A DNA stretch of 64,000 nt. It comes from Bacilli bacterium. GTDB lineage: Bacteria > Bacillota_I > Bacilli_A > RFN20 > CAG-826. Location: contig JAXFZD010000009.1 of the NCBI GenBank assembly GCA_034185265.1, positions 3,558 through 67,557 on the forward strand, written 5' to 3'. The stretch's first letter is position 1, and each line of letters begins with the position of its first letter. Position numbers and translations under genes: made by a program. Below the pieces are notes generated by a model. That model worked only from the letters and a program-made list of their open reading frames with translations. It made no database searches and was not told the DNA's origin. Of the stretch, positions 8,123-27,351 are shown one piece after another.

Positions 8123-8292
8123 ATTTACCCTTTCCGGATATGAAGGGCGACTGGATTCAAATTAACAAGCTGAATAACATCTCCAATTTGCAAGTAAGGT
8201 TCGTCAACACTATTTGTTAAGTTCAAATTCATATCGTCACCTTCACACCCTTATACAAAGTTCATTAGATAGATAAGATTAAGATGAAGTAA

Positions 8293-8532
8293 TTAGTATT
8301 TTTCTTTATCCAGTTCTAATGAATCTTGGTATTCACATTCAAGTTTGTAAAAATCATCTAAAGAGATATCTAACGCTTTAGCGATTCTACCAACGATTAA
8401 GAAGGAAACCTTTCCACCTCTTTCACCACTTTCAATCATTGAGTAGTGTTGAAATGAGATACCAGCTTCCCTAGCAACCTTTCTTTGTGATAATCCTTTT
8501 TCAAGTCTTATATTTGACAAGTAAAGTCTCAT
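8293..8532 (-). CDS. XRE-family HTH transcriptional regulator (Cro/CI-like)
   Basis: MRLYLSNIRLEKGLSQRKVAREAGISFQHYSMIESGER. ATG at 8532 with GGAGG upstream; the ORF-track start at 8574 is less likely. Confidence 0.75.
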   Translation of the reverse strand: MRLYLSNIRLEKGLSQRKVAREAGISFQHYSMIESGERGGKVSFLIVGRIAKALDISLDDFYKLECEYQDSLELDKEKY

Positions 8533-8574
8533 AAAGTTACCTCCGTTTTTTTTCAGCCATTTTTCAACTGACAC

Positions 8575-8755
8575 CGCTATTTTAAATGGCTATATAAAAT
8601 GCGTAAATTTCACCCGAAAAAGTAAAAAATTACACACAAAGCTGGTGTGTGTTTATACAACAGTAACTATACAAAGTGGTCGATTTTGCAAAACATTAAA
8701 TGTTGTGTTTCTTTTCTTTTTGTTATAATTTTTATGAAAAAGATGGAGTAATTTT
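8575..8755. promoter_or_regulatory. Divergent (lysogeny-switch-like) control region between the two XRE genes
   Basis: Extended -10 TGTTATAAT (8721-8729) for the rightward gene. 13-bp palindrome AACATTAAATGTT (8692-8704). Inverted repeat ACACAC..GTGTGTG (8631-8653). Confidence 0.45.
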
Positions 8756-9845: not shown

Positions 9846-10049
9846 GTGACAAAAGATACCAGCTACGAATTTGAAGTAGCGATATTAGATAAGCTATTAA
9901 AAGAAAAGAAAATCAGCTACCAGGAATGGTACGTTCTTTTAATTGAACTTTGTCATAAATATAACCTCCCTTGTATTAATAATATCAATTATATTGATAT
10001 TAAGTCAGTATTGAGGCAATATACACATGATGGCAAAGGAAGTAATTAA
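9846..10049 (+). CDS. Small hypothetical protein (67 aa) overlapping the start of the first serine recombinase
   Basis: GTG start with GGGAG upstream; 23-nt overlap with the next gene. No recognisable motif. Confidence 0.3.
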   Translation: MTKDTSYEFEVAILDKLLKEKKISYQEWYVLLIELCHKYNLPCINNINYIDIKSVLRQYTHDGKGSN

Positions 10050-11727
10050 AGTAGCGAGTCCCGCTCAATATATCGCCTCTACTGGTTTAGAAAATAAAAT
10101 GAAACGTGTAGCGGCATACGCACGAGTGTCTACTGATAGCGAGGATCAGATTCACTCTTTTAAAGCACAAATTGATGAATACACCTCTAAAATAACCAGT
10201 AATCCTAACTGGGAATTTGTTGGCATGTATTCTGATGAAGGTATCTCAGGTACTTCTTTAAAGAAAAGAGACGGACTTAATGCCTTATTAAAAGAAGTTA
10301 AGAAAGGTAATGTTGACCTAATTTTAGTGAAGTCTATTTCTAGATTAGGAAGAAATACGTTAGATATCCTCACCATTGTTAGAGAGCTTAGAGAAATTGG
10401 CGTGGAGATTAAATTTGAAAAGGAAAACCTTTCATCTTTAGATACCAGGACCGATATGGTCTTAACATTCCACTCCTCCATTGCTCAAGAAGAAGCAAAA
10501 AACATCTCCGATAACGTTAAATGGGGAATTAGAAAAAGGATGAGAGATGGTAACTGGAAAGTACCAACTGAGAAGTTCCTTGGTTATACCAAAGATGAAA
10601 ATGGGAACATGATAATTGATGAAACTCAAGCTGATATCGTTAGAGCCATCTTTAATCTTTATCTCGCTAATAAGTCAATAAAAGAAATAATCGCTTATTT
10701 AGAAGGTAACCACTACTTAACTGGTTCAGGTAAAGAAAAATGGAGCCGCCAAAACATCATGCAGATTCTCCAAAATGAGAAATACAAAGGTGACTTAATT
10801 CTTCAAAAGACTGTTGTTATTGATTATTTATCTCATGAGTCTAGAAGTAATAAAGATGGAAAATACGCGGACATGTGGTTAGTTAAAAACCACCACCCTG
10901 CCATTATTTCTAGAGAGGCCTTTGATTTAGTGCAAACCATCATTGAGTATAAAAAGAACGATAGATTCCTTAGACCTAATATAGGTGGCCCATTATCCAC
11001 CAAGCTTTATTGTGGCCTATGTGGGAGACCACTATTTTATCAATCAAGGTGTGATGGAAAGAACATGTTCAGTTGCAATGTGTCTAGAAGAAATCTCCAA
11101 AGGAACAAATGCGAACTATCGCCAATTCAAGAAGAAGATATAAATGCCATCTGCATCCAAGCGATGAAAGCATATTATTCTGATAATTCTCTTACCGCTA
11201 ATCTTTTAGATTGCTTAACTTCTCTTGGTGAGGCTTCTCACAAGCAAGAGGAACTTAACAGGGTTAAAGAAGAGATAACCACTACTGAAAATAGGCTCAA
11301 AGACATTATTGAGGAAAAGATGGAAACCGATTCTGAAGAAGACGATGAAAGATTATCTAACGAATATAAAGAAGCCAAGAAGCATTTAAATGATTTAAAG
11401 GCTAAATTAGACACTTTATCTGGTGAAACATATCAATCCTTTATCTCCGAAGCTAGAAACAAGGAAATCGCCTCTTTAATAACAAATATGGATAACGATG
11501 AATGCTACTTAAAACTTATCGATGAAGTAATCGTTAATGAAGATAACTCTATCATCATAATCGATAATGCTGGTCACCACGTTTCTAAAGAAAACATCAG
11601 CAAAAACATCAAAAAGATAAACGGCTTAGAAGAAGTCATGTATGGTTACTACACTTCTCCTATAACCACTAAAGTTTTTAAATACAAAATTGTAAGATTG
11701 GAGGATTACCCATGGCTCAAGAAATAA
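10027..11727 (+). CDS. Large serine recombinase (resolvase/invertase N-domain + recombinase domain + zinc ribbon + coiled coil)
   Basis: RVAAYARVSTDSEDQ..S (catalytic Ser region), LILVKSISRLGRN, zinc ribbon CGLCGRP..C..C, C-terminal coiled coil. Confidence 0.9.
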   Translation: MMAKEVIKVASPAQYIASTGLENKMKRVAAYARVSTDSEDQIHSFKAQIDEYTSKITSNPNWEFVGMYSDEGISGTSLKKRDGLNALLKEVKKGNVDLILVKSISRLGRNTLDILTIVRELREIGVEIKFEKENLSSLDTRTDMVLTFHSSIAQEEAKNISDNVKWGIRKRMRDGNWKVPTEKFLGYTKDENGNMIIDETQADIVRAIFNLYLANKSIKEIIAYLEGNHYLTGSGKEKWSRQNIMQILQNEKYKGDLILQKTVVIDYLSHESRSNKDGKYADMWLVKNHHPAIISREAFDLVQTIIEYKKNDRFLRPNIGGPLSTKLYCGLCGRPLFYQSRCDGKNMFSCNVSRRNLQRNKCELSPIQEEDINAICIQAMKAYYSDNSLTANLLDCLTSLGEASHKQEELNRVKEEITTTENRLKDIIEEKMETDSEEDDERLSNEYKEAKKHLNDLKAKLDTLSGETYQSFISEARNKEIASLITNMDNDECYLKLIDEVIVNEDNSIIIIDNAGHHVSKENISKNIKKINGLEEVMYGYYTSPITTKVFKYKIVRLEDYPWLKK

Positions 11728-13364
11728 TTCAAATTAATAAAGCTACCCCGGTTGGTAAAAGAAGAGTATGTGCTTATACACGCGTTTCTTCTAAAAGCGA
11801 AGACCAGGAGAATTCTCTCACTTATCAAATTGAAGCTTACACCAAGATGATCATGACAAATCCTAGCTATGAGTTCTGCGGTGTTTTCGTTGATGATGGA
11901 GTAACTGGTACTTCTATTTATAAAAGAAAAGAGTTCCAAAAGATGATAGATAAAGCCCTAAGTGGTCAAATTGATTTAATCATCACTAAATCCTTATCTA
12001 GATTCTCTAGAAATACTGAAGATGCGATTAATATCTTAAGAGTTCTTAGGAATAACAATGTGGAAGTCTATTTTGAAACAGAGAATGTTTCTTCCTTTAA
12101 TATGGATAGCGAATTAGTCATTAACGTATTAAGTGCTCATGCCGCTAATGAATCGAAAGTCATCAGTGATAATGTTAGGATGAGCTACGCTAAAAACTTT
12201 AAAGATAAAAAGGCCTACTTCAATCCTGAACAGCTATATGGTTATCATCGCGGTAATGATGGAAGCATTGTTATCGATGAAAAAGAAGCTGAGGCAGTTA
12301 GACTAATCTATGACCTTTATTTAAAGGATTACACTAGACAGGCAATTATTGATGAGCTAGATAGGAGAGGACTAAAACCTAGATTCACTAAGAAATGGAC
12401 ATTCCAGGCATTTAGAAAAATACTTCATAACGAGAAACACATGGGTGCCGCTTATCTTCAAAAAACATTTGTTAAAGGAGTAAGAGGAAAACGACTTAAA
12501 AACGATGGAACGCTACCTACTATTCTAATTGAGAACAATCATCCCGCGATAGTCAGTAAAGAAGTATGGATGGCTGCTAATGAAAAGCTCAAACAAAAAG
12601 CAATTAAATATCAAAGTCAGGTTCAATATGATGAAAAGCGAGAGGGTAAAATCTGTTTTAATAAGAGCATTTATTCTGGTCTATTTATGTGTGGAAAGTG
12701 TGGTAAAAACTATAATTTCAAAATAAACAATAGAGGCAAGGCATCAGAGTCAAGAATCTTCCACTGTGCATCAAATCGAGAAAGAAAGATTTGTGAGAAT
12801 GATGATCTTCCTTTAGATGTTATCGATATCATTACTCTTAAGGTTGTAAACAAGATTATCACCAATAAAAAGAACTTCTTTGACTTGCTAGAGGAATCAT
12901 TCAATTCTAAAAATGATGTAGAGAAAAAGAAGAAAGAAATACAGGAATTGCAAGAAAAAATAGATGTTTTACAGGCAAAATTCAAAAAGTACAAAGATAT
13001 CGATGATGAGTTTTATCGCGAGGTCAATAAGGCTTATAAGGAGAAGCTTAAACCTCTATGCATGAAGAAAGTAGCCCTTGAGAATTCAATAAACACCGCT
13101 ACTAGCGTTAACGATTATCTCTATCAATTTAAAAAAGTCCTATCACCATACGATAGAACCATTTCTTCTTTAATCGACTTTCCGCTTAATAAAGTATTTA
13201 GTAGGGTAATCATACACGATAGAGATCATATCACTTTTGTTCTTGGGGAAGCTGGTGATATTTCCACCATCACTTCTATGGATGATGACATCCTAATTCA
13301 AACAGAACCATACCTAATTAGAAAAACAAAACATCTGCTTAAATACGGAATCTATATCAACTAG
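11712..13364 (+). CDS. Large serine recombinase, second copy, translationally coupled to the first
   Basis: RRVCAYTRVSSKSEDQ, LIITKSLSRFSRN, zinc ribbon CGKCGKN..C..C, coiled coil. GGAGG RBS and 16-nt overlap with the upstream gene. Confidence 0.9.
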   Translation: MAQEIIQINKATPVGKRRVCAYTRVSSKSEDQENSLTYQIEAYTKMIMTNPSYEFCGVFVDDGVTGTSIYKRKEFQKMIDKALSGQIDLIITKSLSRFSRNTEDAINILRVLRNNNVEVYFETENVSSFNMDSELVINVLSAHAANESKVISDNVRMSYAKNFKDKKAYFNPEQLYGYHRGNDGSIVIDEKEAEAVRLIYDLYLKDYTRQAIIDELDRRGLKPRFTKKWTFQAFRKILHNEKHMGAAYLQKTFVKGVRGKRLKNDGTLPTILIENNHPAIVSKEVWMAANEKLKQKAIKYQSQVQYDEKREGKICFNKSIYSGLFMCGKCGKNYNFKINNRGKASESRIFHCASNRERKICENDDLPLDVIDIITLKVVNKIITNKKNFFDLLEESFNSKNDVEKKKKEIQELQEKIDVLQAKFKKYKDIDDEFYREVNKAYKEKLKPLCMKKVALENSINTATSVNDYLYQFKKVLSPYDRTISSLIDFPLNKVFSRVIIHDRDHITFVLGEAGDISTITSMDDDILIQTEPYLIRKTKHLLKYGIYIN

Positions 13365-13390
13365 GGGATAAACAATATCCTCTTTTTTTA
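13363..13390 (+). terminator. Rho-independent terminator after the recombinase pair
   Basis: AGGGGATA-aacaa-TATCCTCT followed by TTTTTTT. Confidence 0.6.
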
Positions 13391-13400
13391 TGAGAGCAAA

Positions 13401-13500
13401 TTCGTGTACGGACAATTGGACTTTAAAACATATTAGGGTGCCGACAATTGGAGACATCATCGATGAAATATCCCCAAGGATTTTGTCCAAGGGGATTTTT
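13401..13500 (+). repeat. Cassette-boundary repeat copy R1
   Basis: Box a GGACAATTGGA (13410-13420), box b CGACAATTGGAGACAT (13442-13457), 32 bp apart. Followed by hairpin TCCCCAAGG..CCAAGGGGA and a T-run (13471-13500). Confidence 0.9.
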
Positions 13501-14764
13501 AAATGCCAATCATATAAATTGGACAATACCAGTTGTCTGCATTTATTGGAAACAAATCTTCTCGAGAATCAATCACTATTCCTTTTGAAACTGGCTTTCC
13601 ATATTTTTTTAAGAAATTAAAGTTAAAATTATTGCTTACTGGATTGATGCCTTTTTTAATTTCGATCGGAGATATATGGTCCACATAATCAATGATTAAA
13701 TCAGCTTCTTTTTTATCCTTATCGCGATAATAATAGAAATTTCTTCTATAATCCACACCAGCATTTATGTAGCTTTTAATAATTTCACTAACAGCATATG
13801 TTTCGTAAAAAGCACCATTCATTACACCGTTTTCAAGCATTTCGACATTTGGCCATTTACATAAATATGCACACAAGCCAGTATCCATGAAGTAAAACTT
13901 AGGGGCTTTGGTTATTCTATCAGACATATTTTTTGCATATGGTTCTAACAAAATAGCAATTCCCGAAGTAACTAAAATAGAAATCCAGTTTTTAACAGTT
14001 CTCACATCAATACCTATATTTCTCGAAATATCATCATAATTGATTTGTTGGGCGGTTCTTAAAGCCATATAATCTAAAAATCTTAAGAAGTCACCTTCTT
14101 TATCTACATTAATTATCTTTTTGACATCTTTTTCGATATATGTGGCAATATAAGAACTAAAGAAAGTATCTCTGTTTAAATCTTTAGCAATATATTCAGG
14201 CATTCCACCTTTAAATATTCTTTCAAAGATTTCCTTGCGATTGCGATAAAGATTTTTGTCTTTGACTTTGGCGTATTTTTCTTTCAAACAATCTAAATCA
14301 GGGTTAAAAATGTTTCCGTCTATTTCTTCTTCTAACTCATTATTTGCTAGCGATGCCATATTCAATATTGCAGTACGACCTGCCAGTGATTCAGATACCA
14401 TGTTTTGTAATTCAAACTGATTGGAACCAGTTAAAACATACATGAGTGGAACTGGCACATTGTTTTGCAAACATTTATTCTTTTCGCTATCCACCACTAC
14501 TTTGATTGCATCTAAAAGAGGTGAGGCTTTTTGTATTTCGTCGATAATAATTGGCCAAGGATGTGCTTCTAAAAAGAGCTTTGGGTTTTTATTTGCCAGC
14601 GTTCTATTTTCCAAATCATCCAAAGAAACAATGCCCATTTCTTTTCCGAAAACTTTACCAGCAGTTGTTGTCTTTCCGACCTGTCTAGCACCATAAATAG
14701 TGATGACAGCATATTCGTTTTTTATCTCATTGAGTTTTCTTTCAATTGTTCTAATATATTCCAT
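13499..14764 (-). CDS. AAA ATPase with C-terminal DUF4143-like domain
   Basis: Walker A GARQVGKTT, Walker B PIIIDEIQ, C-terminal ..FYYYRDKDKKEADLII.. pattern typical of DUF4143 proteins. ATG at 14764 (GAGG upstream) preferred over the TTG at 14773. Confidence 0.75.
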   Translation of the reverse strand: MEYIRTIERKLNEIKNEYAVITIYGARQVGKTTTAGKVFGKEMGIVSLDDLENRTLANKNPKLFLEAHPWPIIIDEIQKASPLLDAIKVVVDSEKNKCLQNNVPVPLMYVLTGSNQFELQNMVSESLAGRTAILNMASLANNELEEEIDGNIFNPDLDCLKEKYAKVKDKNLYRNRKEIFERIFKGGMPEYIAKDLNRDTFFSSYIATYIEKDVKKIINVDKEGDFLRFLDYMALRTAQQINYDDISRNIGIDVRTVKNWISILVTSGIAILLEPYAKNMSDRITKAPKFYFMDTGLCAYLCKWPNVEMLENGVMNGAFYETYAVSEIIKSYINAGVDYRRNFYYYRDKDKKEADLIIDYVDHISPIEIKKGINPVSNNFNFNFLKKYGKPVSKGIVIDSREDLFPINADNWYCPIYMIGI

Positions 14765-14840
14765 ATGATTCAACCTCGATCATATAATACAACATATTTT
14801 CGACCAAAACAACAGTGCAATGCTATTTTAGTCGAAGTAG

Positions 14841-14960
14841 TATGTTTATCGACAATTGGATTTTGAAATGTATTCATTCATCGACAATTGGAGACATCGA
14901 TTTGAAACTTCCCCCAAAATTTCGCCCAAATCAGGGTAAAATGGAAGGGGGGTTTTATTT
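14841..14960 (+). repeat. Cassette-boundary repeat copy R2
   Basis: Box a CGACAATTGGA (14850-14860), box b CGACAATTGGAGACAT (14882-14897), 32 bp apart. Followed by a C5..G6 hairpin and TTTTATTT (14909-14960). Confidence 0.9.
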
Positions 14961-15046
14961 ATGCCAAACAATACTCTTAAATACACCCGAGCGGAAATTG
15001 TCAAGACACGTACAAATTGTATATGTCTTTTTTATCTTATATACGT

Positions 15047-15338
15047 AAATGTCGTTAAATAACACCCCAGTATGAAAAATCCCATCTATGATAGACGGCA
15101 GGTTCATTTCCCAAGGACAGCAAAAGACAGCTTTTAGGCTAATTTAGATATTTCTTTTGAATATGGAAGCAAGTCATCAATCGACTTATTTTTTATATTC
15201 TCTAAAACATATTTGATGTATCGATATGGATCTAACCCATTTGTAATCGCAGTTCTTATAATTGATAATAGTTTAACTGTGTAAATAGCCCCAGCCTCAC
15301 TTCCAGAAGTTTGAAATACTTTCCTATTGATGCGATAA
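15047..15338 (-). pseudogene. IS66-family transposase C-terminal remnant plus probable terminal inverted repeat
   Basis: Minus-strand frame 15338-15134 reads NRKVFQTSGSEAGAIYTVKLLSIIRTAITNGLDPYRYIKYVLENIKNKSIDDLLPYSKEISKLA*, the conserved IS66 Tnp C-terminus. GTAAATGTCGTTAAATAACACCCC at 15047 resembles the GTAAGCG-type IS66 end. There is no upstream coding sequence. Confidence 0.65.
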
Positions 15339-15359
15339 TTTTAAAAGAGGTATTTTGGT

Positions 15360-17177
15360 ATGAAAATAGAAGATATTAAGAAATATCAATTAGATGGATA
15401 TTTTACTTTAAACGAAGATGGAGAGGAACTTGAAGATTTTACAAAAATCAAGCTTATCGAATTTTGCGCACAAGATATCCAAACTATTATTCGTTATCGT
15501 TATGGCATGCCAGAATTATTAGCAAGGATCAAAAAAGATGATGATGAACTTCTGATGGCTAAATATAGTGAAAAATATCACATCACTCCAGAAGACTTCT
15601 TGGTTAGATTTGAATTTGAAAACAACAATGAAAATGGCTTTGATTACGACGACATCTATAGTTGGAGTTACTCAGTGAACATTAAAGGAGTTACATCTCC
15701 TAATCTTGATGATAAATCACTAGAAGATTATAAAGATGTAACTGATTATCTTTTTGAAAATGACGATCATTTGCTAAAACATTGTATTAGAAAAATTAGA
15801 ATCATGAATTCTGATAAACCACAAAAAGAGTGGGAAGAATTGAATTCATTTTTAAAAGATATTATTGAACAAAATAAATTGCCAAGAAATCAAAGAACAT
15901 ATAAAGATTCCACCTTATCTCAAATACTTTATGAAATGTCTGCTGCATCATCATTTAATATTAAAACAAATGATGAATTTAATAGTTTTTATCACACAAA
16001 TGTTGAAAGGCTTGCTAAACAGGGAAATTACACTTGTATGAGACTTCTCGGATATAACTATTATGAAGGAGATGGCGGATTCCCTCTTGACCCAAAACAA
16101 TCTTTATATTGGTTAGAAAAGGCTTATCAAATTTCTCAAGACCCTGATTTGGCTAGAACCATCGGTTATATTTATTATTATGGAAGAACTACAGATGGAG
16201 TGCCTCAAGGAGATAAAGCATTTCAATATTTTGCGATTGGGCATTTCGCCGGTGGTTATTATGAAGCCACTTATAAATTAGCAGATTGTTATTTGAAAGG
16301 ATATGGTACTCCAGTTAACGAACAGGCTGCGTTCAATTTGGTAAGCAGCATATTCAAAGCAACTCAAGATAATTATTTATCTGGTGAAGATAGTAAATTT
16401 GCCGATGTTGCTTTAAGAATTGGTTCATATTTCAAAGATGGAGTTTATGTTGATAAGGATTTAATTATTGCTCAAGGTTGCTTACTTCAAGCAAGAGACG
16501 CAATTAAGACTCGTTTAGAGAATATGGAATATGTTGGTGATAGAAGCGTTGCTCTTTCTATATCGAAAGCTCTAAATGAAGTAGAAAAAGAATTACATAT
16601 AAAAGATAGAACTATTGTTAATAAAGGTTATGAATTGTTTGACTTAAATAATACATTTAAAGACTATGAAATCAGATTAAAAAAGTTACCAGATAATAGC
16701 ATTGAAGTAACCATTAAACCAAAAAAAGAAGACAGTAAATACATAATACCTATTTGGGAAAATCTTTCATACACCGAAAGGGCTGAAAGTATAAAATTGG
16801 TTCTAAAAAATAATTATATAAACGATAAAACTTTCAAAGATCATTATGATAAGAAGTGGCAAGCAATAGATTTCTATGGTAAGGAGATCTATTTATCAAG
16901 AAGTAAAGATGACTTTGTAATGTTGAGAGCAGAGCATATCATTTACATTCCACAAAAAATCAAAAAGTTAGGTAAAGATTATAAGATGGTCTCGGTCGAG
17001 TTTTATCCTGGTTCCAAACAATATGATTATTATTGTGAATTTGAAACCAAAGTAGGAGATATCGTTAAAGTTTATTCAAATGGTGAAAAGAAAGAGGCTC
17101 GAATCGTTTCAATTAAGATAGTTTATGAAGATCAGCTTCCATTACCAATGCAAAAGCTTTCGAAAGTATATAGATAG
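15360..17177 (+). CDS. Sel1-like repeat (SLR/TPR-like) protein with unknown N- and C-terminal domains
   Basis: 605 aa. Central repeats LAKQGNYTCMRLLGYNYYEGDGGFPLDPKQSLYWLEKA, ..YYEATYKLADCYLKGYGTPVNEQAAFNLV. AGAGG RBS. Confidence 0.6.
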   Translation: MKIEDIKKYQLDGYFTLNEDGEELEDFTKIKLIEFCAQDIQTIIRYRYGMPELLARIKKDDDELLMAKYSEKYHITPEDFLVRFEFENNNENGFDYDDIYSWSYSVNIKGVTSPNLDDKSLEDYKDVTDYLFENDDHLLKHCIRKIRIMNSDKPQKEWEELNSFLKDIIEQNKLPRNQRTYKDSTLSQILYEMSAASSFNIKTNDEFNSFYHTNVERLAKQGNYTCMRLLGYNYYEGDGGFPLDPKQSLYWLEKAYQISQDPDLARTIGYIYYYGRTTDGVPQGDKAFQYFAIGHFAGGYYEATYKLADCYLKGYGTPVNEQAAFNLVSSIFKATQDNYLSGEDSKFADVALRIGSYFKDGVYVDKDLIIAQGCLLQARDAIKTRLENMEYVGDRSVALSISKALNEVEKELHIKDRTIVNKGYELFDLNNTFKDYEIRLKKLPDNSIEVTIKPKKEDSKYIIPIWENLSYTERAESIKLVLKNNYINDKTFKDHYDKKWQAIDFYGKEIYLSRSKDDFVMLRAEHIIYIPQKIKKLGKDYKMVSVEFYPGSKQYDYYCEFETKVGDIVKVYSNGEKKEARIVSIKIVYEDQLPLPMQKLSKVYR

Positions 17178-17225
17178 GCGTCGTATCTGCTGTAGATAAT
17201 TCCTCTATTCTACTAACCAACTTGT

Positions 17226-17313
17226 GTGTGCCGACAATGGACTTTGAAACAGTTCGTGTGCGCGGACAATTAAAGACAAATCAAATCAAATAGTCCCAAG
17301 AAATTGGGATTTT
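17226..17313 (+). repeat. Cassette-boundary repeat copy R3 (most degenerate)
   Basis: Box a CGACAATGGA (17232-17241), box b GGACAATTAAAGACA (17264-17278), 32 bp apart. Followed by hairpin TCCCAA-gaaa-TTGGGA and TTTT (17294-17313). Confidence 0.8.
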
Positions 17314-17390
17314 ACTTGAAAAAAACAACGCTTATATTATAATATACTCGAAAGTTAGTAACTTTAAAGTATATAAAGGAGGTTTTGACA

Positions 17391-18749
17391 ATGTTTGTTG
17401 GAAGAGAAAAAGAATTAAAACAACTAAATAGCGCTTTTTCATCACAAAATAAAGAATTAGGTATTATTTATGGTAGGCGTAGAATTGGAAAAACAAAACT
17501 CATCGATCAATTTGTGAAAGACAAACCGCATTTGTTTTATCAAGCGAAAGAGGACAGTTCGTATGGCAATCTACGCTCATTTTCTTATGAATTAAATAAA
17601 TTAATGTCTTTGCCTTTGGATTTCGTGTATTCAAGTTGGCAAGCTGCATTAGATGCTTTATCTAACTATTTTAATGGCTCTAGATTTATTTTATGTATTG
17701 ATGAATATCCATTTATCACTAAACAGGATAAGTCTTTCTCGTCTATTGTTGAAGAATTTTACGATCATTCAAATGATAATTTAATGCTATTAATCTCTGG
17801 CTCCGATGTATCTTTCCTCAAAAAAGAGATTAGAAACAAAAAATCACCATTATATAAAAGGAAGACATTTGAGATGAATGTTCAAAAACTTCCATTAGAG
17901 GAGGCTCTACAATTCTTTAATGGTGTTGATAAAGAAACAATATGTTCTTTTCTTTCAATAATGTCAACTTTCCCTTATTACTTATCTGCAATCAATACAA
18001 ATAATACTTTTGAAGATGAAATAAAAAGGTTAGTAATAAACGAATATGGCCCTTTTTTCAATCTTCCAGAAAACGTTTTATCAAAATCAAACAAACCAGA
18101 TATTTATAATGCTATTCTATTTGCAATCGCCAATAGAAAAACAAATATATCAAGCATCTCTTCATTCATTAAAGAAGAAACAGGAAAAGTATCTAAATAT
18201 TTAACAACTCTTTTGGAGTCAGAAGTAGTCGGAAAAAGAACAACATTTAATGGAAACAAAAAGAACAATTATTATGTAATAACAGATCCTCTTCTTAAAT
18301 TTTGGTATAAAGCAGTATACCCAAATCAAAGCAGAATTATTATCAATCCAGATATGATTTTTGATGAAATAAAAGTCGACTTAAAACAGGCTGTCGAATT
18401 TGGGTTTGAAGACGTATCTTTACTATATCTCAATAAACTTAATAGAACCGGAAAGCTTGGTCGCGTTTATCCAGAAATCCAAACATTCAAAGCAGATAAT
18501 ACGAGATTGGGCAGATTCGTAGAAATAGATGGTTTGGCCGAGCAGGATGGCCATTTATTAGTGGTCGAATGCAAATATAGAAAAGAAAAATTTACAATAG
18601 AAATGTTTGAGCACCTTAAAGAAAGCGATTCTATATTTAATAAGAACCTCATAAGGGAATACTATCTATTTTCCAAATCTGGTTTCGATGAACAATTAAA
18701 AGAATCAATTAACGTTAAGTTAATCGATTTAAGTATCTTGTTCTCATAA
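17391..18749 (+). CDS. ATPase of the archaeal-ATPase/DUF234 type (STAND-like)
   Basis: MFVGREKELKQL..GIIYGRRRIGKTKL (Walker A), FILCIDEYP (Walker B), C-terminal DUF234-like region (EIDGLAEQDGHLLVVECKYR). ATG at 17391 with AGGAGG 9 nt upstream. Confidence 0.7.
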   Translation: MFVGREKELKQLNSAFSSQNKELGIIYGRRRIGKTKLIDQFVKDKPHLFYQAKEDSSYGNLRSFSYELNKLMSLPLDFVYSSWQAALDALSNYFNGSRFILCIDEYPFITKQDKSFSSIVEEFYDHSNDNLMLLISGSDVSFLKKEIRNKKSPLYKRKTFEMNVQKLPLEEALQFFNGVDKETICSFLSIMSTFPYYLSAINTNNTFEDEIKRLVINEYGPFFNLPENVLSKSNKPDIYNAILFAIANRKTNISSISSFIKEETGKVSKYLTTLLESEVVGKRTTFNGNKKNNYYVITDPLLKFWYKAVYPNQSRIIINPDMIFDEIKVDLKQAVEFGFEDVSLLYLNKLNRTGKLGRVYPEIQTFKADNTRLGRFVEIDGLAEQDGHLLVVECKYRKEKFTIEMFEHLKESDSIFNKNLIREYYLFSKSGFDEQLKESINVKLIDLSILFS

Positions 18750-18752
18750 TTC

Positions 18753-18858
18753 ATTACTCGACAATTGGACATTAATTGTATTCATTCATCGACAATTGGA
18801 GAAACGATTGATTATCGAGACACCTACGTAAAAGTGCGTGTTTTTTTCTTTTTTTTGG
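18753..18858 (+). repeat. Cassette-boundary repeat copy R4 (includes a terminator-like hairpin)
   Basis: Box a CGACAATTGGA (18759-18769), box b CGACAATTGGAGAAAC (18790-18805), 31 bp apart. Imperfect hairpin CACCTACG..GTGCGTG followed by T7CT8 (18821-18856). Confidence 0.9.
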
Positions 18859-18913
18859 CATTATTTGCTATATTTGGTTTGTGAATTAAACTTTATTCAA
18901 TTTGTAACTGGAC

Positions 18914-18953
18914 ATATAAAAACCCCGTGAAAAACTGGACGGACACGAGGTTT
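18914..18953 (-). terminator. Rho-independent terminator of the DUF4417/toxin-like/immunity-like operon
   Basis: Minus strand: AAACCTCGTG..CACGGGGTTT followed by TTATAT. Confidence 0.55.
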
Positions 18954-19007
18954 AAACTTACATAGTTATTCTAGGCTTCGACAAACATGCAGAATCTGCT
19001 TGCAAGT

Positions 19008-19469
19008 TTATTTGTTCTCTTCAACAGCTGTTTTTAATTTCTCATCAGTATATGGGTTGGCATCGAAATATTCATCTTGCTTAACAATTCCAGCTTTAAT
19101 TAAAAGCTCAATATAAATTGAATCATATGTTTCAAACATCATTTCCTCATCTTTAGAAGCAGGATCGCTATCTAATGATAATTCTAATCTATTTAATAGT
19201 AGTCCAAGGAAAGGATATGGGTCTGATGCTTTTAAACAGTGACCATCAAAATTGTAAAACGCTATCATAAAATTCCATGCGTCACGTCTACCATTTATTG
19301 AATTCTTTAAATATTTAAACCACTCATCAAAGACAACTTGGTCACCATATTCTGCGATTAATTGCTTTGCAATTTCTAGTAAACGATCAACTTCATCGTC
19401 TGAATAGTCGCTTTGAAAATTAATACTAAATAATTCTTTATTAATATTTTCATCGTATTCGGTTTTCAT
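19008..19469 (-). CDS. Acidic 153-aa protein, immunity-protein-like
   Basis: ORF 2 nt downstream of the toxin-like gene. Acidic, helical, no signal peptide. The call is by context only. Confidence 0.4.
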   Translation of the reverse strand: MKTEYDENINKELFSINFQSDYSDDEVDRLLEIAKQLIAEYGDQVVFDEWFKYLKNSINGRRDAWNFMIAFYNFDGHCLKASDPYPFLGLLLNRLELSLDSDPASKDEEMMFETYDSIYIELLIKAGIVKQDEYFDANPYTDEKLKTAVEENK

Positions 19470-19471
19470 AA

Positions 19472-20017
19472 TTAATTACCTCCTTTAAAATTAGGTGATT
19501 TAGGATATTTTGCAAATGCTTCATGAGCCCATTTAATTGATTTTGAATTTGGTCGATAATGACCACTTCTATCATCATATGAGACAATTTGACCACGTTT
19601 TACAACTAGTATTCCTGCCATCCTCACTTTCGGGTCCGTACCACCTATCAAAGTAGGATGCGGAGTAGGAAGAGCACCTAGCGCACGGCCATTTCCATTT
19701 CTGTTTCCAATTATAACTTCACCTTTGGTTGTGATTACATATGGTAGAATCATAGATCCATTGCGACCTCCAATGTATTTACCATCATAAATGGACTCTA
19801 GTGTTTTTGCTGTCGGGTTCATCGAATATCCAATACCTGGCTTATAAACACCATATTTGATATCTTTTTTCATCATTTTGGCGTAAACGGAATACTCTTT
19901 TTGATAGGGCTGAGAGTTTCCGCCTAGGGGCGATAAAGAATAAAAGCTGCAACTTCCTCCAGAACCACCACCAGAGAAATTTGAGAATAAAGGACTACTA
20001 CCCTTCATCGTTATCAC
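19472..20017 (-). CDS. 181-aa protein with a Gly/Ser-rich N-terminus and a conserved-looking C-terminal domain (candidate toxin module)
   Basis: NFSGGGSGGSCS linker, then ..PTPHPTLIGGTDPKVRMAGILVVKRGQIVSYDDRSGHYRPN. Overlaps the upstream gene by 20 nt. The family was not identified. Confidence 0.4.
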   Translation of the reverse strand: MITMKGSSPLFSNFSGGGSGGSCSFYSLSPLGGNSQPYQKEYSVYAKMMKKDIKYGVYKPGIGYSMNPTAKTLESIYDGKYIGGRNGSMILPYVITTKGEVIIGNRNGNGRALGALPTPHPTLIGGTDPKVRMAGILVVKRGQIVSYDDRSGHYRPNSKSIKWAHEAFAKYPKSPNFKGGN

Positions 20018-20702
20018 CTTCAGAAAGTCTGCGCTCCCTATCTTTAGCGTTTTCTTTCATTGTGTAAGAATCATAAGGATAAATAGGAATTCCCTTTAAT
20101 CTTACATAAGCAAATATCTCATCAGGAACTGGCCCATACACACAAATTCCAGTAGGCTCTAATGTGTCTACTATTTTTTGAACTTGTTCCGCAAAGATGT
20201 TGCGATTATCAGTTCTTTTGATAAATCCATTAGTGCCAATAGCAATTAATGTATGATGAGGATATGCCTCGAGAGAAGATAATGTTCTGTTGTCACCTAG
20301 TCTAACATTTGGGACGACTTTAATACCTTGAGAACCATAATAATAGGTTATTCCTAGATTTAATCCTATTTGGCTCTTTTGAACCCAAAGTGGCATATTA
20401 TCGTAAGGACTTGCATCAACACCAATTATCAATCCATATTTTCTTAACTTTTCAGTATAAGCTTTTGGGTTACCTAAAATTGGTTGAAACGCTGGATCGT
20501 TGCAATAAAATGACATTCCAGTTTCAGATGGATTCGTAACATCGCATCTTCTATCCCACTGAATTATTTCTTTTGGAGGCTCAGTGGCAACCATCCATTC
20601 CTCAATTATTGCGAAACCATCGGTTTCGGTTCGTCCAGCTCCGTCAATGAGGTAGGCGAGATAGACGTCCCTGATATAGGGAGATTTTGGTTTTCGTAAC
20701 AT
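19998..20702 (-). CDS. DUF4417-like protein
   Basis: 234 aa. The FYCNDPAFQPILGNPKAYTEKLRKYGLIIGVDASPYDNMPLWVQKSQIGLNLGITYYYGSQGIKVVPNV pattern matches my recollection of DUF4417 proteins. Confidence 0.5.
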   Translation of the reverse strand: MLRKPKSPYIRDVYLAYLIDGAGRTETDGFAIIEEWMVATEPPKEIIQWDRRCDVTNPSETGMSFYCNDPAFQPILGNPKAYTEKLRKYGLIIGVDASPYDNMPLWVQKSQIGLNLGITYYYGSQGIKVVPNVRLGDNRTLSSLEAYPHHTLIAIGTNGFIKRTDNRNIFAEQVQKIVDTLEPTGICVYGPVPDEIFAYVRLKGIPIYPYDSYTMKENAKDRERRLSEGDNDEG

Positions 20703-20867
20703 AAATCAATTTTTACCTTTTTACGGTTTTGCCGTGTATTTAAAATTGAGATATGCTACTATTTATTTGGTGATTGCTAATTCAGCATATCTCTAATCGT
20801 AACCATTCGCACTGGTTGCGATTTTTTAGCAAATGTGTTCATTCTGTTCATACATCCTCCTTTTTTA

Positions 20868-21284
20868 CTATTCTCTCATATTCTCATACCTACCACCTCC
20901 ATTCAAAAACTCGTCTTCAACATCATTAGATGTTTTAACTTCAATATTGTTCATAACGCATTTCTTTTGTAATGTTTTATCATCAGTGATGAGGCAATAT
21001 CCGTCGATAAAAGCATATGCCATACATAAACAATCATAAGTAGATAAAGATTCGTATTTTAGAGCAAATTCACTTGTTTTGGCTATTATCTCATCTTTAT
21101 CATTTGTAATTACAGTTACTGATTTTCTGACAATTTCAGCCAATTCATCTGGCTTAATTAATTCGCCTATTATTTGAGTTTCAGAAATATAAAATTGGTC
21201 TTTATATTGCGATAAAGAACCAAGTTTGCCATCTTGGTAAAAAGTTATTAGAAAACATGAGTCGCAATATAAAAATTTCTTCAT
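20868..21284 (-). CDS. PIN-domain-like protein (putative toxin ribonuclease)
   Basis: 138 aa. N-terminal FLYCDSCFL (Asp), ..LSTYDCLCMAYAF.. and CLITDDKTLQKKC match PIN acidic-residue spacing. The start lies 1 nt after the stop of the upstream gene. Confidence 0.55.
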   Translation of the reverse strand: MKKFLYCDSCFLITFYQDGKLGSLSQYKDQFYISETQIIGELIKPDELAEIVRKSVTVITNDKDEIIAKTSEFALKYESLSTYDCLCMAYAFIDGYCLITDDKTLQKKCVMNNIEVKTSNDVEDEFLNGGGRYENMRE

Positions 21285-21285
21285 A

Positions 21286-22335
21286 TTATTCTGTCCTCAT
21301 ATTTTGCATTACATCATAAAGCGGAACATGCAAAAATTCTGCCGCTCTAGAAATTGTTATTAATTCTTCAGATAAAGCTAAATACACTTGTTGGGTAAAA
21401 ATTGTTGGCTTTTCAGAGTCCTTAACAGAATCTAAAAGTGTTTTTTCCATTTTTCTGCCACCATTTCTATTTAAGAAAATAAAGTAGTTTTTGTGGTACG
21501 TTTCCGTAATAACACCTGTTTCTAAAAGTCTATTTAATAAACAAGAAGGAGCAATTTTATATTGCTTAGCAATTTCATTTCTAAGATATGTTGTTATATT
21601 TCTATTTGTTTTACCAAATATAGAATAAATATCTTCATCGGGAATTAAAACATTACCTGCGACTTGGTTGATATATTTTTCAACATCTTTTTCCGACATG
21701 TTTTCTTCAGAATTATTAAAGAATAAATGACACGTTTCGTGAATTAAGGTGAATCTTTGTCTTTCAATTGTTCTAATTTTGGAATTGAAGAATATATAAG
21801 GAATGCCGTTTACCAATCCATTAATTCCGTCAATTTCATCAGAGCACTCAAAAGAAAGAATGATGATACCTGCATGTTCTAAAACATTAGTAACAGAATA
21901 AATTGGTCCAGAAGATGGGAGACCCAGAATAGATCTTATTATTTTGGCGTTATTAGAAGCAATATTATTAAAAGATAGTTTTTTAGCCTTAAAAATTTTA
22001 AAATTCAGCAAACCAACAATATTCATCAAAGCAACACGCTCAAAACATTTATTTTCAATTTCACTTTTTAAAAGTTCGATATCATTTTTTGAGGCTTTTT
22101 GTTTTTTTCTAAAACTGACATGATTAAAAACCAAATTACTATTATTTCTAGAAAGTAATTCAGTCCATGGAATATCTAAAGCATTAGCGATATTTTTGCA
22201 AATATCAATGTTTGGCTCCCTTTCTTCATTTTCATATAAAGAAATAGCAGCTTTAGTGCATCCAATTGCTTTAGCAAGCTCTTCAGTTGTCATTCCTTTT
22301 TTTAAACGGTAATACTTGATTTTTTTGCCAATCAT
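21286..22335 (-). CDS. Fused XRE-HTH / ImmA-IrrE (COG2856) zinc metallopeptidase
   Basis: MIGKKIKYYRLKKGMTTEELAKAIGCTKAAISLYENEER (HTH) and FTLIHETCHLFF (HExxH). ATG at 22335 with GAGGTG RBS; the ORF-track start at 22389 is unlikely. Confidence 0.8.
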   Translation of the reverse strand: MIGKKIKYYRLKKGMTTEELAKAIGCTKAAISLYENEEREPNIDICKNIANALDIPWTELLSRNNSNLVFNHVSFRKKQKASKNDIELLKSEIENKCFERVALMNIVGLLNFKIFKAKKLSFNNIASNNAKIIRSILGLPSSGPIYSVTNVLEHAGIIILSFECSDEIDGINGLVNGIPYIFFNSKIRTIERQRFTLIHETCHLFFNNSEENMSEKDVEKYINQVAGNVLIPDEDIYSIFGKTNRNITTYLRNEIAKQYKIAPSCLLNRLLETGVITETYHKNYFIFLNRNGGRKMEKTLLDSVKDSEKPTIFTQQVYLALSEELITISRAAEFLHVPLYDVMQNMRTE

Positions 22336-22359
22336 ATTCTTCACCTCTGTAAACATTTT

Positions 22360-22388
22360 ATCATATTTTTTTATTTTGTTAACAGTCA
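22360..22388 (-). promoter_or_regulatory. Candidate promoter of the XRE-ImmA/PIN operon
   Basis: Minus strand: TTGACT (22388-22383), 17 nt, TATGAT (22365-22360). Confidence 0.45.
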
Positions 22389-22410
22389 ATTATTGTGAGT
22401 GAAAAAAATT

Positions 22411-22475
22411 GTCCGTGAATCGACAGTTGACCTTAAAACCATGTCCGTGTATCGACAATTGGAGACATAGAGAGT
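22411..22475 (+). repeat. Cassette-boundary repeat copy R5 (last copy, abuts the core genes)
   Basis: Box a CGACAGTTGA (22421-22430), box b CGACAATTGGAGACAT (22453-22468), 32 bp apart. Both boxes are preceded by GTCCGTG. Confidence 0.9.
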
Positions 22476-22518
22476 AAGGGAGATTAGTGTATTGGCTTTT
22501 TGATTACTAATATAAAGA

Positions 22519-22602: not shown

Positions 22603-25600
22603 TTATTCGAGTTTTCTTTTTCCGCCACGAACAATGACAATAGAGACGATTATTGTAATTAAAGCTATTCCGCCAAAGATAGAACTGATAATTATAATTA
22701 CTGAAGTTGCGCTTTCAGTAATTGCTCTAGGAGTAAACATAGGTCCATTTTCAAATGGCTTAAGTCCGTCAAAGTGAACTACTTCAATCTCTACATATTT
22801 ATCTCTAAAGTCAATAAATGATTGTTCAGCGTTGCTATCTCTAAGAAGAGTTTGAGCTTCTTCAGATAATTTATTCCACATTTCTCTAAATGAAGTTCCA
22901 TCAGGAGTCTCTTTTTCGTTCCAAATTCCTTTTAATGCATTAACTATATTGCTTGATGCACCAGGTTGAGCTAAAGCATCTTCAACTTGGGCTAAGAAAT
23001 ATTTAGCGAAATATTCAGCTTCAGCAGAAACTAAGACGTTATGATTTTCTACTAAAAGCTTTTCTGCGTCTGAAAGAGCATCATAAGCAGTTTGCGCTAC
23101 TTTAATCTTGTTAGAGCTCTCTTCTGTAGGATAAACATCTCCAATAGCATCAATCTTATCCATTACATCTTGCCAAGAAGCAACTTTAATTACTGTATTG
23201 TTTAATAAATATAAGTTAAAGAGCATATTTCTTTCTTCGCTAGTTAAATCAATAGTTTCTTTTCCTAAGCGGTTAAGCTCTTCTACTCTTTCGGATTGAG
23301 AATAATCTAAGATGCTATTACAAACTCTTTCGATTTCTGCATCAAGCGCAGCTAATAATCCAAATCTTTCTTCAAATTCTCTTATAGCAGAATCTAAAAC
23401 ATAATCGTTAACAACTAAAGATTTATTTTCATCGCTTAGATTATCATAAGCTGTTTTAGCTTCTTCTATTGCATCGATACATTCTTGAGTATATTCAATT
23501 TCTCCGATTGCATCGATTAATTCAATTACATGTTCAACTTCTTCAACTCTTTCTTCTTCTCCAATAGCAACTAGAAGTACATCGAAGTTATTGTCTCCTA
23601 AATCAGAAATAGTGACTTCATATCCTTCTACTTCTAGAGCGATAGAGTATTCAATTTCTTTTTGTTTTCCTTCTGGATAAACATATTTACTTAATAAATA
23701 TTGTCCAATCCAACCTGAGAGACCATCTTCAACAGTTTCCGTGATTTCAGGAGATAAAACTTCTACTCCATCTCCTAAAATATGAAGATCTACTTTTTCA
23801 GGTCTAGAAGCAGTTCCGTCATCAACCCAACGTAACGAAACTGATAAATTAGTTTTGATTGTTTCATGGATTGCAACAAAGTTAAATCCAACTGGAGACA
23901 TAAAGTAAGCATCTTTATGTTCCCAAGTAGAAGTATCTTTTATAACTACTTGGTAAATAATTGGCTCGCCATCTTTATATTTAGGTAAGTTGTTACCTAA
24001 TGAATATGACCAATCTCCTCCAGAGAAAGTATGAGTATCAAGCTCTTCTCCGGTATTTCTATTTATTAAAGCGACAGTTAATTCACCGTCATTAGGTCTA
24101 AGATGATCATAATTATCTTCATCATTCCAGAAGATAGTTCCGGAAATATGTTCATAATTTTGTGCTGAGTTAGTGTGAATTAGAGTTAATACAAAGCCTT
24201 TTTTAACATCACCTGTTAATTCATAGCGATATTTATTTGCTGTATCACTTCCGCCAACTCCTTCTCCAATTCCATCCCAAGAAGGAACTAAAGTATCTAA
24301 GACTCCAGTATAAGTAGCATGCCAAGAATCTTCTTCTTTAACGTTAACTACTTCAGAACCATTAATTAATAAATCTAAAGAAGTTGGTCTAAGTCCGTCA
24401 ATATTATTACAATCATTAAATATGACTTGGATAGAAACATCTCTAGTCATCTCTTTATTTGACCAAGAAGCAACAAATGTTGTATCTTCAGTGACTTTAT
24501 AGGTTTCTCCTGGTTTATAGAGCTTTTCTCCAACTCTCCATCCTTCGAAATAGTTATTGTTAGCTTTTTCATCGTAGACATAGTTGAAGTCAGGAACTTT
24601 AATTTCTGAGTTAAGCTCTACAGCATAAGTTTTATCTTTATAGTTATCATCATTTAAATTAGGTTTAACTGTGATTTGTGCTGAAGCAGCAGAATCTTCA
24701 AAGTAATTAGATCTCCAGATCTTACTCCACTCTTTTCCAGTAGCGCCATCAGTTTTAATCCATCCAACATATTGACCTACGATATCGTAGAAGCATCCCT
24801 CTTTTTCCCAGAATAATTCGGGTAAAAGATGATCAGAATGGTAAATTGGAGTTTCATCTGGCATACCGAGTTTTCCCCATTTTTGAGGAGCACAGTTTAA
24901 TCCAATTTTAAATAAAGTATTTTTATGATCCCACTCTTGACCTGCTTTAGGAAGAGCAATTTTATGTGCAGGATCAGCAAAGAAAGCATTTACGTCATCT
25001 CTTTTCTTATCCCAGAAAACTTTATAACCTGTGCTTTGGCCAGCAGTATTCATTCCCGCATTTTTATAGTTACGGAATCCTCCTACAGACCATTCTTTTT
25101 CAGTTTCAAGAAGAATCATTCCACGAACGTCTTTAAGCTTAGGCATGAATGTATAATCTTTTGTGATGTCGTTATCTTGGAGATAGACAAAAGGTCTACC
25201 TGTTGAAGGATTAACTGGGTTTTCTTCAATAAATTTCTCTAAGATAACTTTTAAACGATCTCTAATAATTGGATTTTCTTCTGTTCTATAAGTTTCTTCG
25301 GTAAATCCTAAAATTAAACATTCACTTGGATTACGAATAAGGAAAGATTTAACCCAATCTAAAACCATATTTAAGTTAATTAGATTATCATTTTCATCTC
25401 CTGCCCAATATGTTCCGCCTTCTTTTTTCCCGTGGGTTTGCCACAAATTTTCCCCATCATCAATAAGTTCGTTTTTCTTAAATTTGTGTGTTTTTACTTT
25501 ACGGTTATGAAGTCTAATATCCATATAACGGACACCTTCTTCAAGTTGTTCTTTTATATAACGCTTTTGTGTAATTGCATATTGATCGCCAAATCCAAAA

Positions 25601-27321: not shown

Positions 27322-27351
27322 ATAATAGTTCCCTTTCTAATAATAAATAAA

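Follow-up and report, generated by a model that had tools for sequence, protein, structure and literature searches.

Tandem gene cassettes behind a pair of large serine recombinases: a probable composite island at tRNA-Ser genes of rumen and gut Bacilli

In staphylococci, the recombinases CcrAB excise SCCmec, an element of the staphylococcal cassette chromosome (SCC) group, and adjacent recombinase-less defence cassettes in trans, either singly or together (PMC11470126). At tRNA genes, integrative and conjugative, integrative and mobilizable, and cis-mobilizable elements (ICEs, IMEs, and CIMEs) accrete so that recombinase-less units flanked by attachment (att) sites lie in tandem with an element that has a recombinase, as in ICESt1/ICESt3-related elements, and IMEs with serine recombinases insert within protein genes, where the repeats on either side of them are very short (PMC5704250). 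The locus considered here lies in a 64,000-nucleotide stretch of an assembled Bacilli genome (GCA_034185265.1, contig JAXFZD010000009.1); this whole stretch is the window, and positions refer to it unless a locus number (L003 and so on) is given for one of the other loci compared. It comprises one unit with two large serine recombinases (LSRs), LSR1 and LSR2, and then four cassettes without recombinases, with copies of a bipartite repeat at the joints. We consider it most probable, on comparing the sequences, that this is a composite genomic island built by LSR site-specific recombination, in which tandem cassettes with right attachment arms stand behind an LSR pair at a tRNA-Ser gene. The closest described system is the composite SCC/SCCmec islands of staphylococci. 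The evidence consists of the anatomy of the site, breaks that fall exactly at a CA dinucleotide, reassortment of modules, one presence/absence polymorphism, and co-variation between the boxes of the repeat and the recombinases. A preliminary description of this DNA had offered two readings, tandem accretion of small integrative elements at one att site, with only the leftmost element keeping its recombinases, and an integron-like capture platform. The first is supported by the comparisons and fits better than the second, and the four following cassettes do lack recombinases.

A repeat scan and an nhmmer profile made from the five copies agree with that description in finding exactly five copies of a unit of ~60 nt in the 64-kb window, all on the + strand. 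The profile matches lie at 13398-13465, 14838-14905, 17220-17287, 18747-18813, and 22409-22476, with E values of 2e-13 to 7e-17 compared with 0.1 for the next-best match, and the profile search of the window found no copy outside 13.4-22.5 kb. The exact 11-mer CGACAATTGGA occurs six times between 13442 and 22463, always on the + strand, whereas chance would give ~0.03 exact matches per 64 kb. Each unit is made of two direct boxes of ~18 nt (consensus CGTGTATCGACAATTGGA) that are 31-32 nt apart; the second box runs into GA-CA, and the unit ends in ...GGAGA-CA. Copy 3 (17220-17278) has degenerate boxes, and copy 4 has AA at 18803-18804 in place of the otherwise invariant central CA. As first described, copy 1 begins ~10 nt past the terminator of the recombinase operon (13363-13390, + strand; a hairpin of -8.4 kcal/mol followed by a T-run), and the copies lie between unrelated gene units of mixed orientation. 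The repeat is best read as the right arm ("P") of an LSR attachment site. A promoter reading of the boxes was dropped, there being no promoter-like consensus and no enrichment of promoter-like sites, and an Rfam scan of the window at gathering thresholds returned only tRNAs, with no match in the repeat region.

The same repeat is found in other genomes. A scan of species-representative genomes with the pattern GACAATTGGA-N19-22-GACAATTGGAG gave 36 loci, two of which are chance matches that the profile does not recognize; the other 34 come from 28 metagenome-assembled genomes of rumen and gut Bacilli, Erysipelotrichaceae, and 'Mollicutes'. Metagenome contigs were examined as well, and the bipartite pattern had no match in viral contigs. 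In these genomes, the repeat occurs only at module junctions near recombinases or tRNA-Ser genes. Modules end with the repeat, and what borders them on the left is either a further P arm or a tRNA-Ser 3' end (...CCGCCA). The sequence to the left of CA falls into a small set of classes (the LSR2 3' end with its terminator, the 5' end of a DUF4143 gene, the 3' end of a DUF234 gene, and a few others), and the variant of the repeat tracks this left class, while the sequence to the right of CA belongs to the module that follows. Across 55 junctions, the breakpoint is at CA, with left sequence running up to ...GGAGA-CA and right sequence starting after it; CA itself is present at 53 of them. Clustering of the 250-nt flanks shows that modules reassort freely, as the left-right combinations L2-R1, L2-R4, L3-R1, and L3-R4 are all found, and no fewer than eight different right-hand modules are found next to the recombinase end. 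The shuffling of cassettes with breakpoints at the repeats that the preliminary description had proposed to look for is thus present, and the breaks are exact at the terminal CA. Some genomes have the repeat in at least two separate locations (L012 and L017 on one 178-kb contig; L003/L036 and L013; L008/L034 and L031), as would fit islands at two or more of their tRNA-Ser genes.

The junctions also reveal the structure of the complete site. LSR att sites are typically ~40-50 bp long, with imperfect dyad symmetry and an invariant central dinucleotide. Here, we call the half to the left of CA, with its extra direct outer box 32 nt out, P and the half to the right P'. In 19 distinct right flanks, CA is followed by 7 variable nt and then by TTGTCGAGACACGTAC-N5-GTGCGTG and a T-run, where the TTGTCGAGACACGTAC arm is an inverted copy of the box that doubles as the stem of a terminator hairpin. 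The resulting P.P' site is a 42-bp imperfect palindrome centred on CA, CGTGTATCGACAAT-TGGAGA-CA-TCATCG-ATTGTCGAGACACG, with the core GACAA-N7-CA-N7-TTGTC. P.P' junctions with the inverted box (n = 22) have a mean of 12.7 symmetric positions out of 24, compared with 6.2 ± 2.1 of 24 in a shuffled-left control; junctions without the inverted box (n = 33) have a mean of 6.8 of 24, which is the chance level. The site is thus an imperfect palindrome, and the P arm and the tRNA end have its central CA in common. The 7-nt stretch that separates CA from the inverted box exists in a few variants (TCATCGA, CGATTGA, TCTTCAA, and others; in the window, for example, at 13457-13463 and 18805-18811).

Where the inverted-box arm has no box to its left, it stands directly after the 3' end of a tRNA-Ser, ...CTCCGCCA. 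A tRNA-Ser followed by N7 and the inverted box is found in L005, L009, L018, L032, L043, L045, L048, L051, and L062, and one followed by a looser, box-less left arm in L011, L021, and L026; the anticodon of the target is mostly GGA, with GCT and CGA also represented. Because the tRNA ends exactly at CA, the elements would integrate at the last two bases of tRNA-Ser. The gene itself is left intact, with the hairpin of the element substituting for the tRNA's own terminator. An unoccupied tRNA-Ser in L021 is followed by ~8 nt and a terminator hairpin, and this native layout of tRNA, spacer, and terminator explains why the outermost right flanks of the islands are A-rich and carry diverse terminators. 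Two other readings of these sequences were abandoned. The right-flank hairpins were considered as attC-like folded sites, but they are plain terminators, as all have T-runs and the unoccupied tRNA-Ser has the same layout. The TCGAA of the tRNA T-loop, considered as a shifted copy of the box, is probably a coincidence.

Several cassettes can be followed from place to place as discrete units. The DUF234 cassette (17279-18804) has a counterpart in L011 with 98.6% identity over 1,525 nt, which stands directly after a tRNA-Ser(GGA) and ahead of a chromosomal terminator in an 8-kb block that has no recombinase; the two junctions read CCGCCA|AATCAAATCAAATAGTCCC in L011 and AAAGACA|AATCAAATCAAATAGTCCC in the window. 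The DUF4143 cassette is 93-99% identical in L003/L036, L007, L021, L026, and L049, and it follows a recombinase P arm in the window, L003, and L049 and a tRNA-Ser directly in L021 and L026. A case of presence and absence is the pair L042 and L066, which have the same diverged recombinase type and the same right chromosomal flank and are 96.5% identical on both sides of a 1.43-kb DUF4143 cassette that is inserted exactly at CA in L066 and missing in L042. Homologous recombination did not place this cassette, because the P arms that flank it, TTTTGACATTTAAGGACA and TCGACAATTGGAGACA, are too dissimilar. The inserted cassette (L066 11769-13200, against ~3053 in L042) has boxes of the window type beside the P arm of an LSR2 type that is 77-78% identical, which suggests cross-recognition between site variants. 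Single-cassette islands without a recombinase stand at tRNA-Ser in L009 (HTH-Fic), L032 (cupin and HxlR), L018 (a DUF4143-like ATPase), and L011 (DUF234), and cassettes at tRNA-Ser without a nearby recombinase also occur in L021 and L026. In L070, an array comparable to that of the window runs from an LSR pair through a cupin-HxlR cassette and a TIR_2 plus AAA_21 cassette to one with AbiH and a deaminase. The genomes that carry these cassettes belong to different species with unrelated chromosomal flanks, so identities of 93-99% point to recent horizontal transfer.

These observations bear on an alternative that we consider improbable, namely, that full-size elements with recombinases integrated successively at tRNA-Ser and were then reduced to CIME-type remnants, the small units never having moved alone. 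Such accretion followed by decay is documented for tyrosine-recombinase elements (PMC5704250), and traces of decay are present here too: recombinases are truncated in L044, L045, L048, and L062, and there are cassette remnants at 14897-15040 of the window and in L005, as well as an IS66 remnant. Yet the same 1.4-1.5-kb units, with nucleotide-identical boundaries and 93-99% identity, recur in different species, at different positions in the arrays, and alone at tRNA-Ser, and identical ends are not expected from independent deletions. The L066/L042 pair, moreover, differs by exactly one cassette.

The recombinases themselves, LSR1 (566 aa, 10027-11727, + strand) and LSR2 (550 aa, 11712-13364, + strand), both have the catalytic, recombinase, and zinc-ribbon domains of LSRs (Pfam Resolvase, Recombinase, and Zn_ribbon_recom). 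They are not Ccr equivalogs, since the NCBIfam CcrA/B/C models give only 43-117 bits against cut-offs of 700-900; LSR1 scores ~100-117 bits against CcrC, CcrB, and XisF, where the cut-offs are 375-900. A metagenome scan with LSR2 returned 15 loci, and its clade is narrow and known from metagenomes only, with ~9 full-length 90%-identity clusters at 73-98% and the next relatives at 37%. A small open reading frame (ORF) of 67 aa (9846-10049, + strand) always accompanies the pair. It is 79-86% identical in L010, L029, and L037-L039 and has no match in Pfam, PHROG, or NCBIfam, and the homology of the recombinase module between genomes begins within it, at ~9861. It may serve as an accessory or directionality factor.

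The P arm of the recombinase-bearing element is repeat copy 1 (13398-13456, + strand), with boxes at 13403-13420 and 13436-13452 and the crossover CA at 13455-13456. LSR2 homologues of 69-80% identity are each followed by a bipartite direct repeat of their own, with the same 32-nt phasing and CA end but another box sequence: ACGTGTCCTAACATTTAAGGACA in L040 and L043, TAGTGTGTTTTGACATTTAAGGACA in L041, L042, and L066, GTGTAATGGCAATTGCTGGCA in L047, and GGGTGCCGACATTTGAAGGCA in L062. In L062, both arms are altered together, to GACAT...ATGTC as opposed to GACAA...TTGTC. This locus had also been considered as a complete minimal autonomous element, an idea that was dropped because most of the catalytic domain is missing from its LSR1. 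Three separate assemblies (L044 110-1007, L045 5627-6732, and L048 3702-4472) share one truncated LSR2, which starts at residue ~276-284 and runs to the end of the protein. In each, it stands a few hundred nt past a tRNA-Ser.P' junction, which suggests a deletion derivative, either recurrent or inherited, that has spread.

In L043 and L062, the recombinase module is flanked by tRNA-Ser.P' and P.B' junctions, which identifies it as a mobile unit and not a fixed platform. This is one of the observations that make a true integron-like platform unlikely, slightly more so than decay alone. On that model, a resident, nonmobile recombinase would capture promoterless circles at an attI-like copy 1, and arrays would grow only there. 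The recombinase pair is indeed directly followed by a copy of the repeat in many genomes, the cassettes are small (1-3.7 kb), each with its own site, and vary in order between genomes, and the insertion that distinguishes L066 from L042 is at the recombinase-proximal site. However, cassettes also stand at tRNA-Ser without a recombinase nearby, they have their own promoters and terminators and mixed orientations, the recombinases are of the serine type, and the sites are not attC-like. Least likely of all, and largely refuted, is that the repeat is a dispersed element of the repetitive extragenic palindromic (REP) or miniature inverted-repeat transposable element (MITE) type or an operator or promoter array, with modules shuffled by homologous recombination between copies: the boxes are phased at three helical turns, like some operator or iteron arrays, and some P arms are mosaics of the same first half with different second halves that could reflect gene conversion, but the many copies at unrelated intergenic sites by which the preliminary description would have recognized such an element are found neither in the window, where all copies are confined to the array, nor in the 34 public loci, where they lie only at module junctions, and, as already mentioned, there is neither a promoter-like consensus nor an enrichment of promoter-like sites, nor any Rfam match in the region. 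Homologous recombination is ruled out because tRNA-Ser junctions and dissimilar P-arm junctions share only CA.

For a composite island built by LSR recombination, the following sequence of events can be proposed. An element would exchange with the 3' end of tRNA-Ser (...CTCCGC-CA) at the shared CA, and the integrated unit would then read left arm (P' or the looser variant), cargo, and P arm. LSR1 and LSR2 could cut out, in circular form, whatever lies between two CA sites, and such circles could insert at tRNA-Ser or at junctions with a P arm or tRNA arm. A junction at which a P arm or a tRNA end is already present could itself take up an incoming circle by recombination, and units would therefore stack head to tail. 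The four recombinase-less cassettes of the window would have been excised and inserted in trans by LSR1 and LSR2, and left arms that resemble the native region downstream of the tRNA (A-rich, with a terminator) may leave a usable target for further insertions. We infer that LSR1 and LSR2 catalyze these exchanges, perhaps as a hetero-complex in the manner of CcrA and CcrB, helped by the product of the 67-aa ORF, and that circular intermediates and some route of transfer between cells are involved.

Several points weigh against this explanation. The support for it is comparative. We know of no canonical LSR that recombines anything other than attP with attB. Recombination between hybrid sites, known for CcrAB and assumed here, would be needed to form the P.P' and P.X' junctions. 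The left arms of the DUF4143 and DUF234 cassettes have no inverted box and keep only the inner ~8-10 nt. The 7 nt to the right of CA assort independently of both neighbours, for which a single 2-bp crossover gives no explanation. Related recombinase genes are truncated in the four loci listed above. The tRNA-Ser end of the window's own island is not reached and must be >17 kb to the left. Finally, seven metagenome samples that contain the strain all share the order Sel1, DUF234, cassette 4, and core, so the array is stable in this strain and at least part of it is probably frozen. The DUF234 contigs obtained by exact-protein look-up all have the gene order of the window. The DUF4143 contigs from such look-ups measure only 1.4-2.2 kb and end inside the repeat; 31-mers shared with the repeat copies of other genomes in the sample account for these ends, which do not indicate a polymorphism.

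The array of the window can be described cassette by cassette. Cassette 1 (13457-14896; 1,440 nt) is intact. It starts with the left arm TCATCGATG and a terminator hairpin, carries a gene for an AAA_14/DUF4143 ATPase (Pfam; 13499-14764, - strand) whose start is likely the ATG at 14764, and ends in copy 2 as its P arm (14838-14896, CA at 14895-14896). Cassette 2 (14897-17278; 2,382 nt) is a decayed composite. Its left part consists of what survives of another cassette, namely its left end and a remnant of the 3' part of a gene (14897-14996), within which 14903-14971 is 81% identical to the sequence after the repeat in L013, followed by the remnant of an inverted-box P' hairpin (14997-15040) and the C-terminal remnant of an IS66 transposase (~15134-15301, - strand; PF13817, E = 3e-10). 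The gene for a Sel1-repeat protein (15360-17177, + strand) comes next, and the degenerate copy 3 forms the P arm (17220-17278, CA at 17277-17278). Cassette 3 (17279-18804; 1,526 nt) has the left arm AATCAAATCAAATA with a terminator hairpin and then its own promoter, TTGAAA-16-TATAAT, upstream of an ATPase_2/DUF234 ATPase gene (Pfam; 17391-18749, + strand); its P arm is copy 4 (18747-18804), with the central AA. An LSR is not expected to join an AA-ended site to CA sites. The junctions at the degenerate copy 3 and the AA-ended copy 4 are probably frozen and no longer recombinogenic.

Cassette 4 (18805-22467; 3,663 nt) has all of its genes on the - strand. Its P' arm and a conserved left-end module occupy 18805-18960 (+ strand), with CGATTGA as N7, the inverted box and terminator hairpin TTATCGAGACACCTAC...GTGCGTGTTTTTTT, and a block ending in ...CTGGACGGACACGAGG. 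This module of ~160 nt is conserved in 16 loci and is followed by complete divergence. Its noncoding part after the inverted-box hairpin (18847-18960), which includes the block AAACCCCGTGAAAAATCTGGACGGACACGAGGTTTAAAC, is kept despite unrelated cargo; the module may act as a - strand terminator, offer the recombinase another box to bind, or encode a small RNA. The genes are two ORFs with no assigned function (19008-19469 and 19472-20017), a DUF4417 gene (19998-20702), a PIN-like gene (20868-21284), and, adjoining the latter, an HTH-peptidase M78 gene (21286-22389). The part from DUF4417 to HTH-M78 is 77% identical in L044, where it directly follows a truncated recombinase remnant. Copy 5 is the P arm (22409-22467, CA at 22466-22467), and the right flank of this last site, TAGAGAGTAAGGGAG (22468-22482, + strand), marks the outer boundary of the array; the same 15 nt come after the first site in L044 and L045. 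Immediately to the right of the array (22603-30552) are two very large genes for surface proteins, the first encoding 1572 aa with Chlamydia-PMP repeats and a Cna_B domain and the second 1066 aa with Listeria-Bacteroides repeats. Large surface-protein genes also border the islands in L009 and L018.

To the left of the LSR pair, the element continues as a phage-satellite-like block, mostly on the - strand, that occupies 1-9712 and extends beyond the window; it appears to be the body of the recombinase-bearing element. It includes an AAA_13 ATPase gene cut by the window start and genes for a helicase with a C-terminal winged helix-turn-helix domain (2463-3851), a terS-like protein (4747-5340), a DnaD-like loader (5521-6309), an antirepressor (Ant; 6463-7236), a tyrosine integrase (7199-8122), and repressor-like HTH proteins (8293-8574 and 8756-9712). 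Upstream of the LSR pair, related loci encode a VapE-like primase, repressors, and a terS-like protein, and the tyrosine integrase is missing from the related loci L037, L066, and L070. No copy of the repeat and no inverted-box site lies upstream of the recombinases in the window or in ~6 kb beyond its left edge, and there is no tRNA or P' arm within ~17 kb to the left of the element's P arm. The window has no tRNA-Ser; its tRNAs are a tRNA-Leu(GAG) at 54858-54940 and a cluster of five (Leu, Lys, Gln, Tyr, and Val) at 62496-62929.

The cargo of the cassettes consists mostly of candidate anti-phage genes. PADLOC assigns the DUF4143 ATPase to PDC-S01 (E = 2.7e-86), the DUF234 ATPase to PDC-S27 (E = 5.5e-52), and the HTH-M78 protein to RmrA, the RosmerTA antitoxin (E = 1.6e-37), which makes the HTH-M78 and PIN-like genes a candidate RosmerTA-like pair. 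Fic, TIR, and AbiH genes are among the cargo of other loci. Genes of other kinds are carried as well: in L034 and L024, the stretch from LSR2 to the P arm contains genes for a Na+/H+ exchanger and an ABM monooxygenase.

How does this locus relate to known systems? With phiC31, Bxb1, A118, and TnpX/TndX, it shares the domain architecture of the recombinases, att sites of ~40-50 bp that are imperfect palindromes, and exchange at a central dinucleotide. It differs from them in that two recombinases take the place of one enzyme, one arm has an additional outer box, and hybrid sites and left arms without the outer half-site motif are apparently tolerated. With the ICEs, IMEs, and CIMEs, it shares site-specific integration at the 3' end of a tRNA gene and tandem recombinase-less units, but those elements use tyrosine integrases and long identity segments that rebuild the tRNA end, whereas only 2 nt are shared with the target here.

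The integron-like label of the preliminary description holds as a functional analogy and fails on the type of recombinase, the type of site, gene orientation, and cassette expression. As in integrons, discrete small cassettes that can be exchanged are arrayed after a recombinase, each with its own recombination site at one end, cassette order differs between genomes, and the cargo is rich in defence genes. Integrons, however, use the tyrosine recombinase IntI, where this system has a serine-recombinase pair, and the only tyrosine recombinase in the window is the integrase in the satellite-like block, 5 kb from the array. Integron attC sites are folded single strands, whereas the sites here are double-stranded palindromes with direct boxes; the repeat itself consists of direct boxes, and palindromy arises only across the junction with the inverted box of the next unit. 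Integron cassettes lack promoters, share one orientation, and depend on a common promoter for expression, whereas each cassette here starts with a terminator, may lie in either orientation, and, as cassette 3 illustrates, can have its own promoter; the primary site is a tRNA gene, and the recombinase module is itself mobile. A more ambitious reading, in which the system is the serine-recombinase counterpart of the integron, with a cassette pool, a stockpile at tRNA-Ser, a satellite carrier, and a division of labour between the recombinases, is put forward tentatively, since all these parts taken jointly would seem somewhat more apt to fail than to hold. If it is true, self-contained cassettes of 1-4 kb, each with promoter, terminator, and att site, would pass between rumen and gut Bacilli of at least 28 species; a satellite-like element would pick a pair of sites, leave the chromosome together with as few or as many downstream cassettes as that choice includes, and bring them into new hosts; and the two recombinases would split the work between the box-bearing arm and the loosely defined one.

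The likeness to SCC goes further. In both systems, two adjacent LSRs are found, the fixed target is the 3' end of a conserved gene that is left intact, and units lie head to tail with direct att copies between them, one unit having the recombinases and recombinase-less units having defence cargo (candidate defence cargo here); the window, L070, and the tRNA-Ser islands all show tandem units with direct att repeats or recombinase-less units of this kind. The preliminary description, which knew of no described system with this repeat or layout, therefore needs qualification in that SCC/SCCmec cassettes are analogous. In the rest it stands, as we found no description of the repeat, of an LSR pair targeting tRNA-Ser, or of this LSR clade in open-access papers and preprints. 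If the comparison is sound, the logic of SCC, tandem cassettes served by a serine-recombinase pair, extends beyond staphylococci to a new target, a new recombinase clade, and a new site architecture, with cassettes as small as those of integrons. It would offer a testable route by which single-gene candidate defences (PDC-S01, PDC-S27, RosmerTA-like, Fic, TIR, and AbiH) spread between species. Its defined sites and naturally co-varying variants are material for studying how paired LSRs read asymmetric sites, and such recombinases could become insertion tools with a conserved tRNA landing site. The differences from SCC are equally plain. The target is tRNA-Ser rather than rlmH (orfX), LSR1 and LSR2 are not Ccr-family equivalogs, the att arm is a bipartite direct repeat of ~60 nt that co-varies with the recombinase clade, the cassettes have 1-3.7 kb and one to five genes rather than 17-48 kb, and the hosts are uncultured rumen and gut Bacilli in which the system is known from sequence alone. 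In sum, there is good comparative support for regarding this system as the likely rumen-bacterial counterpart of SCC.

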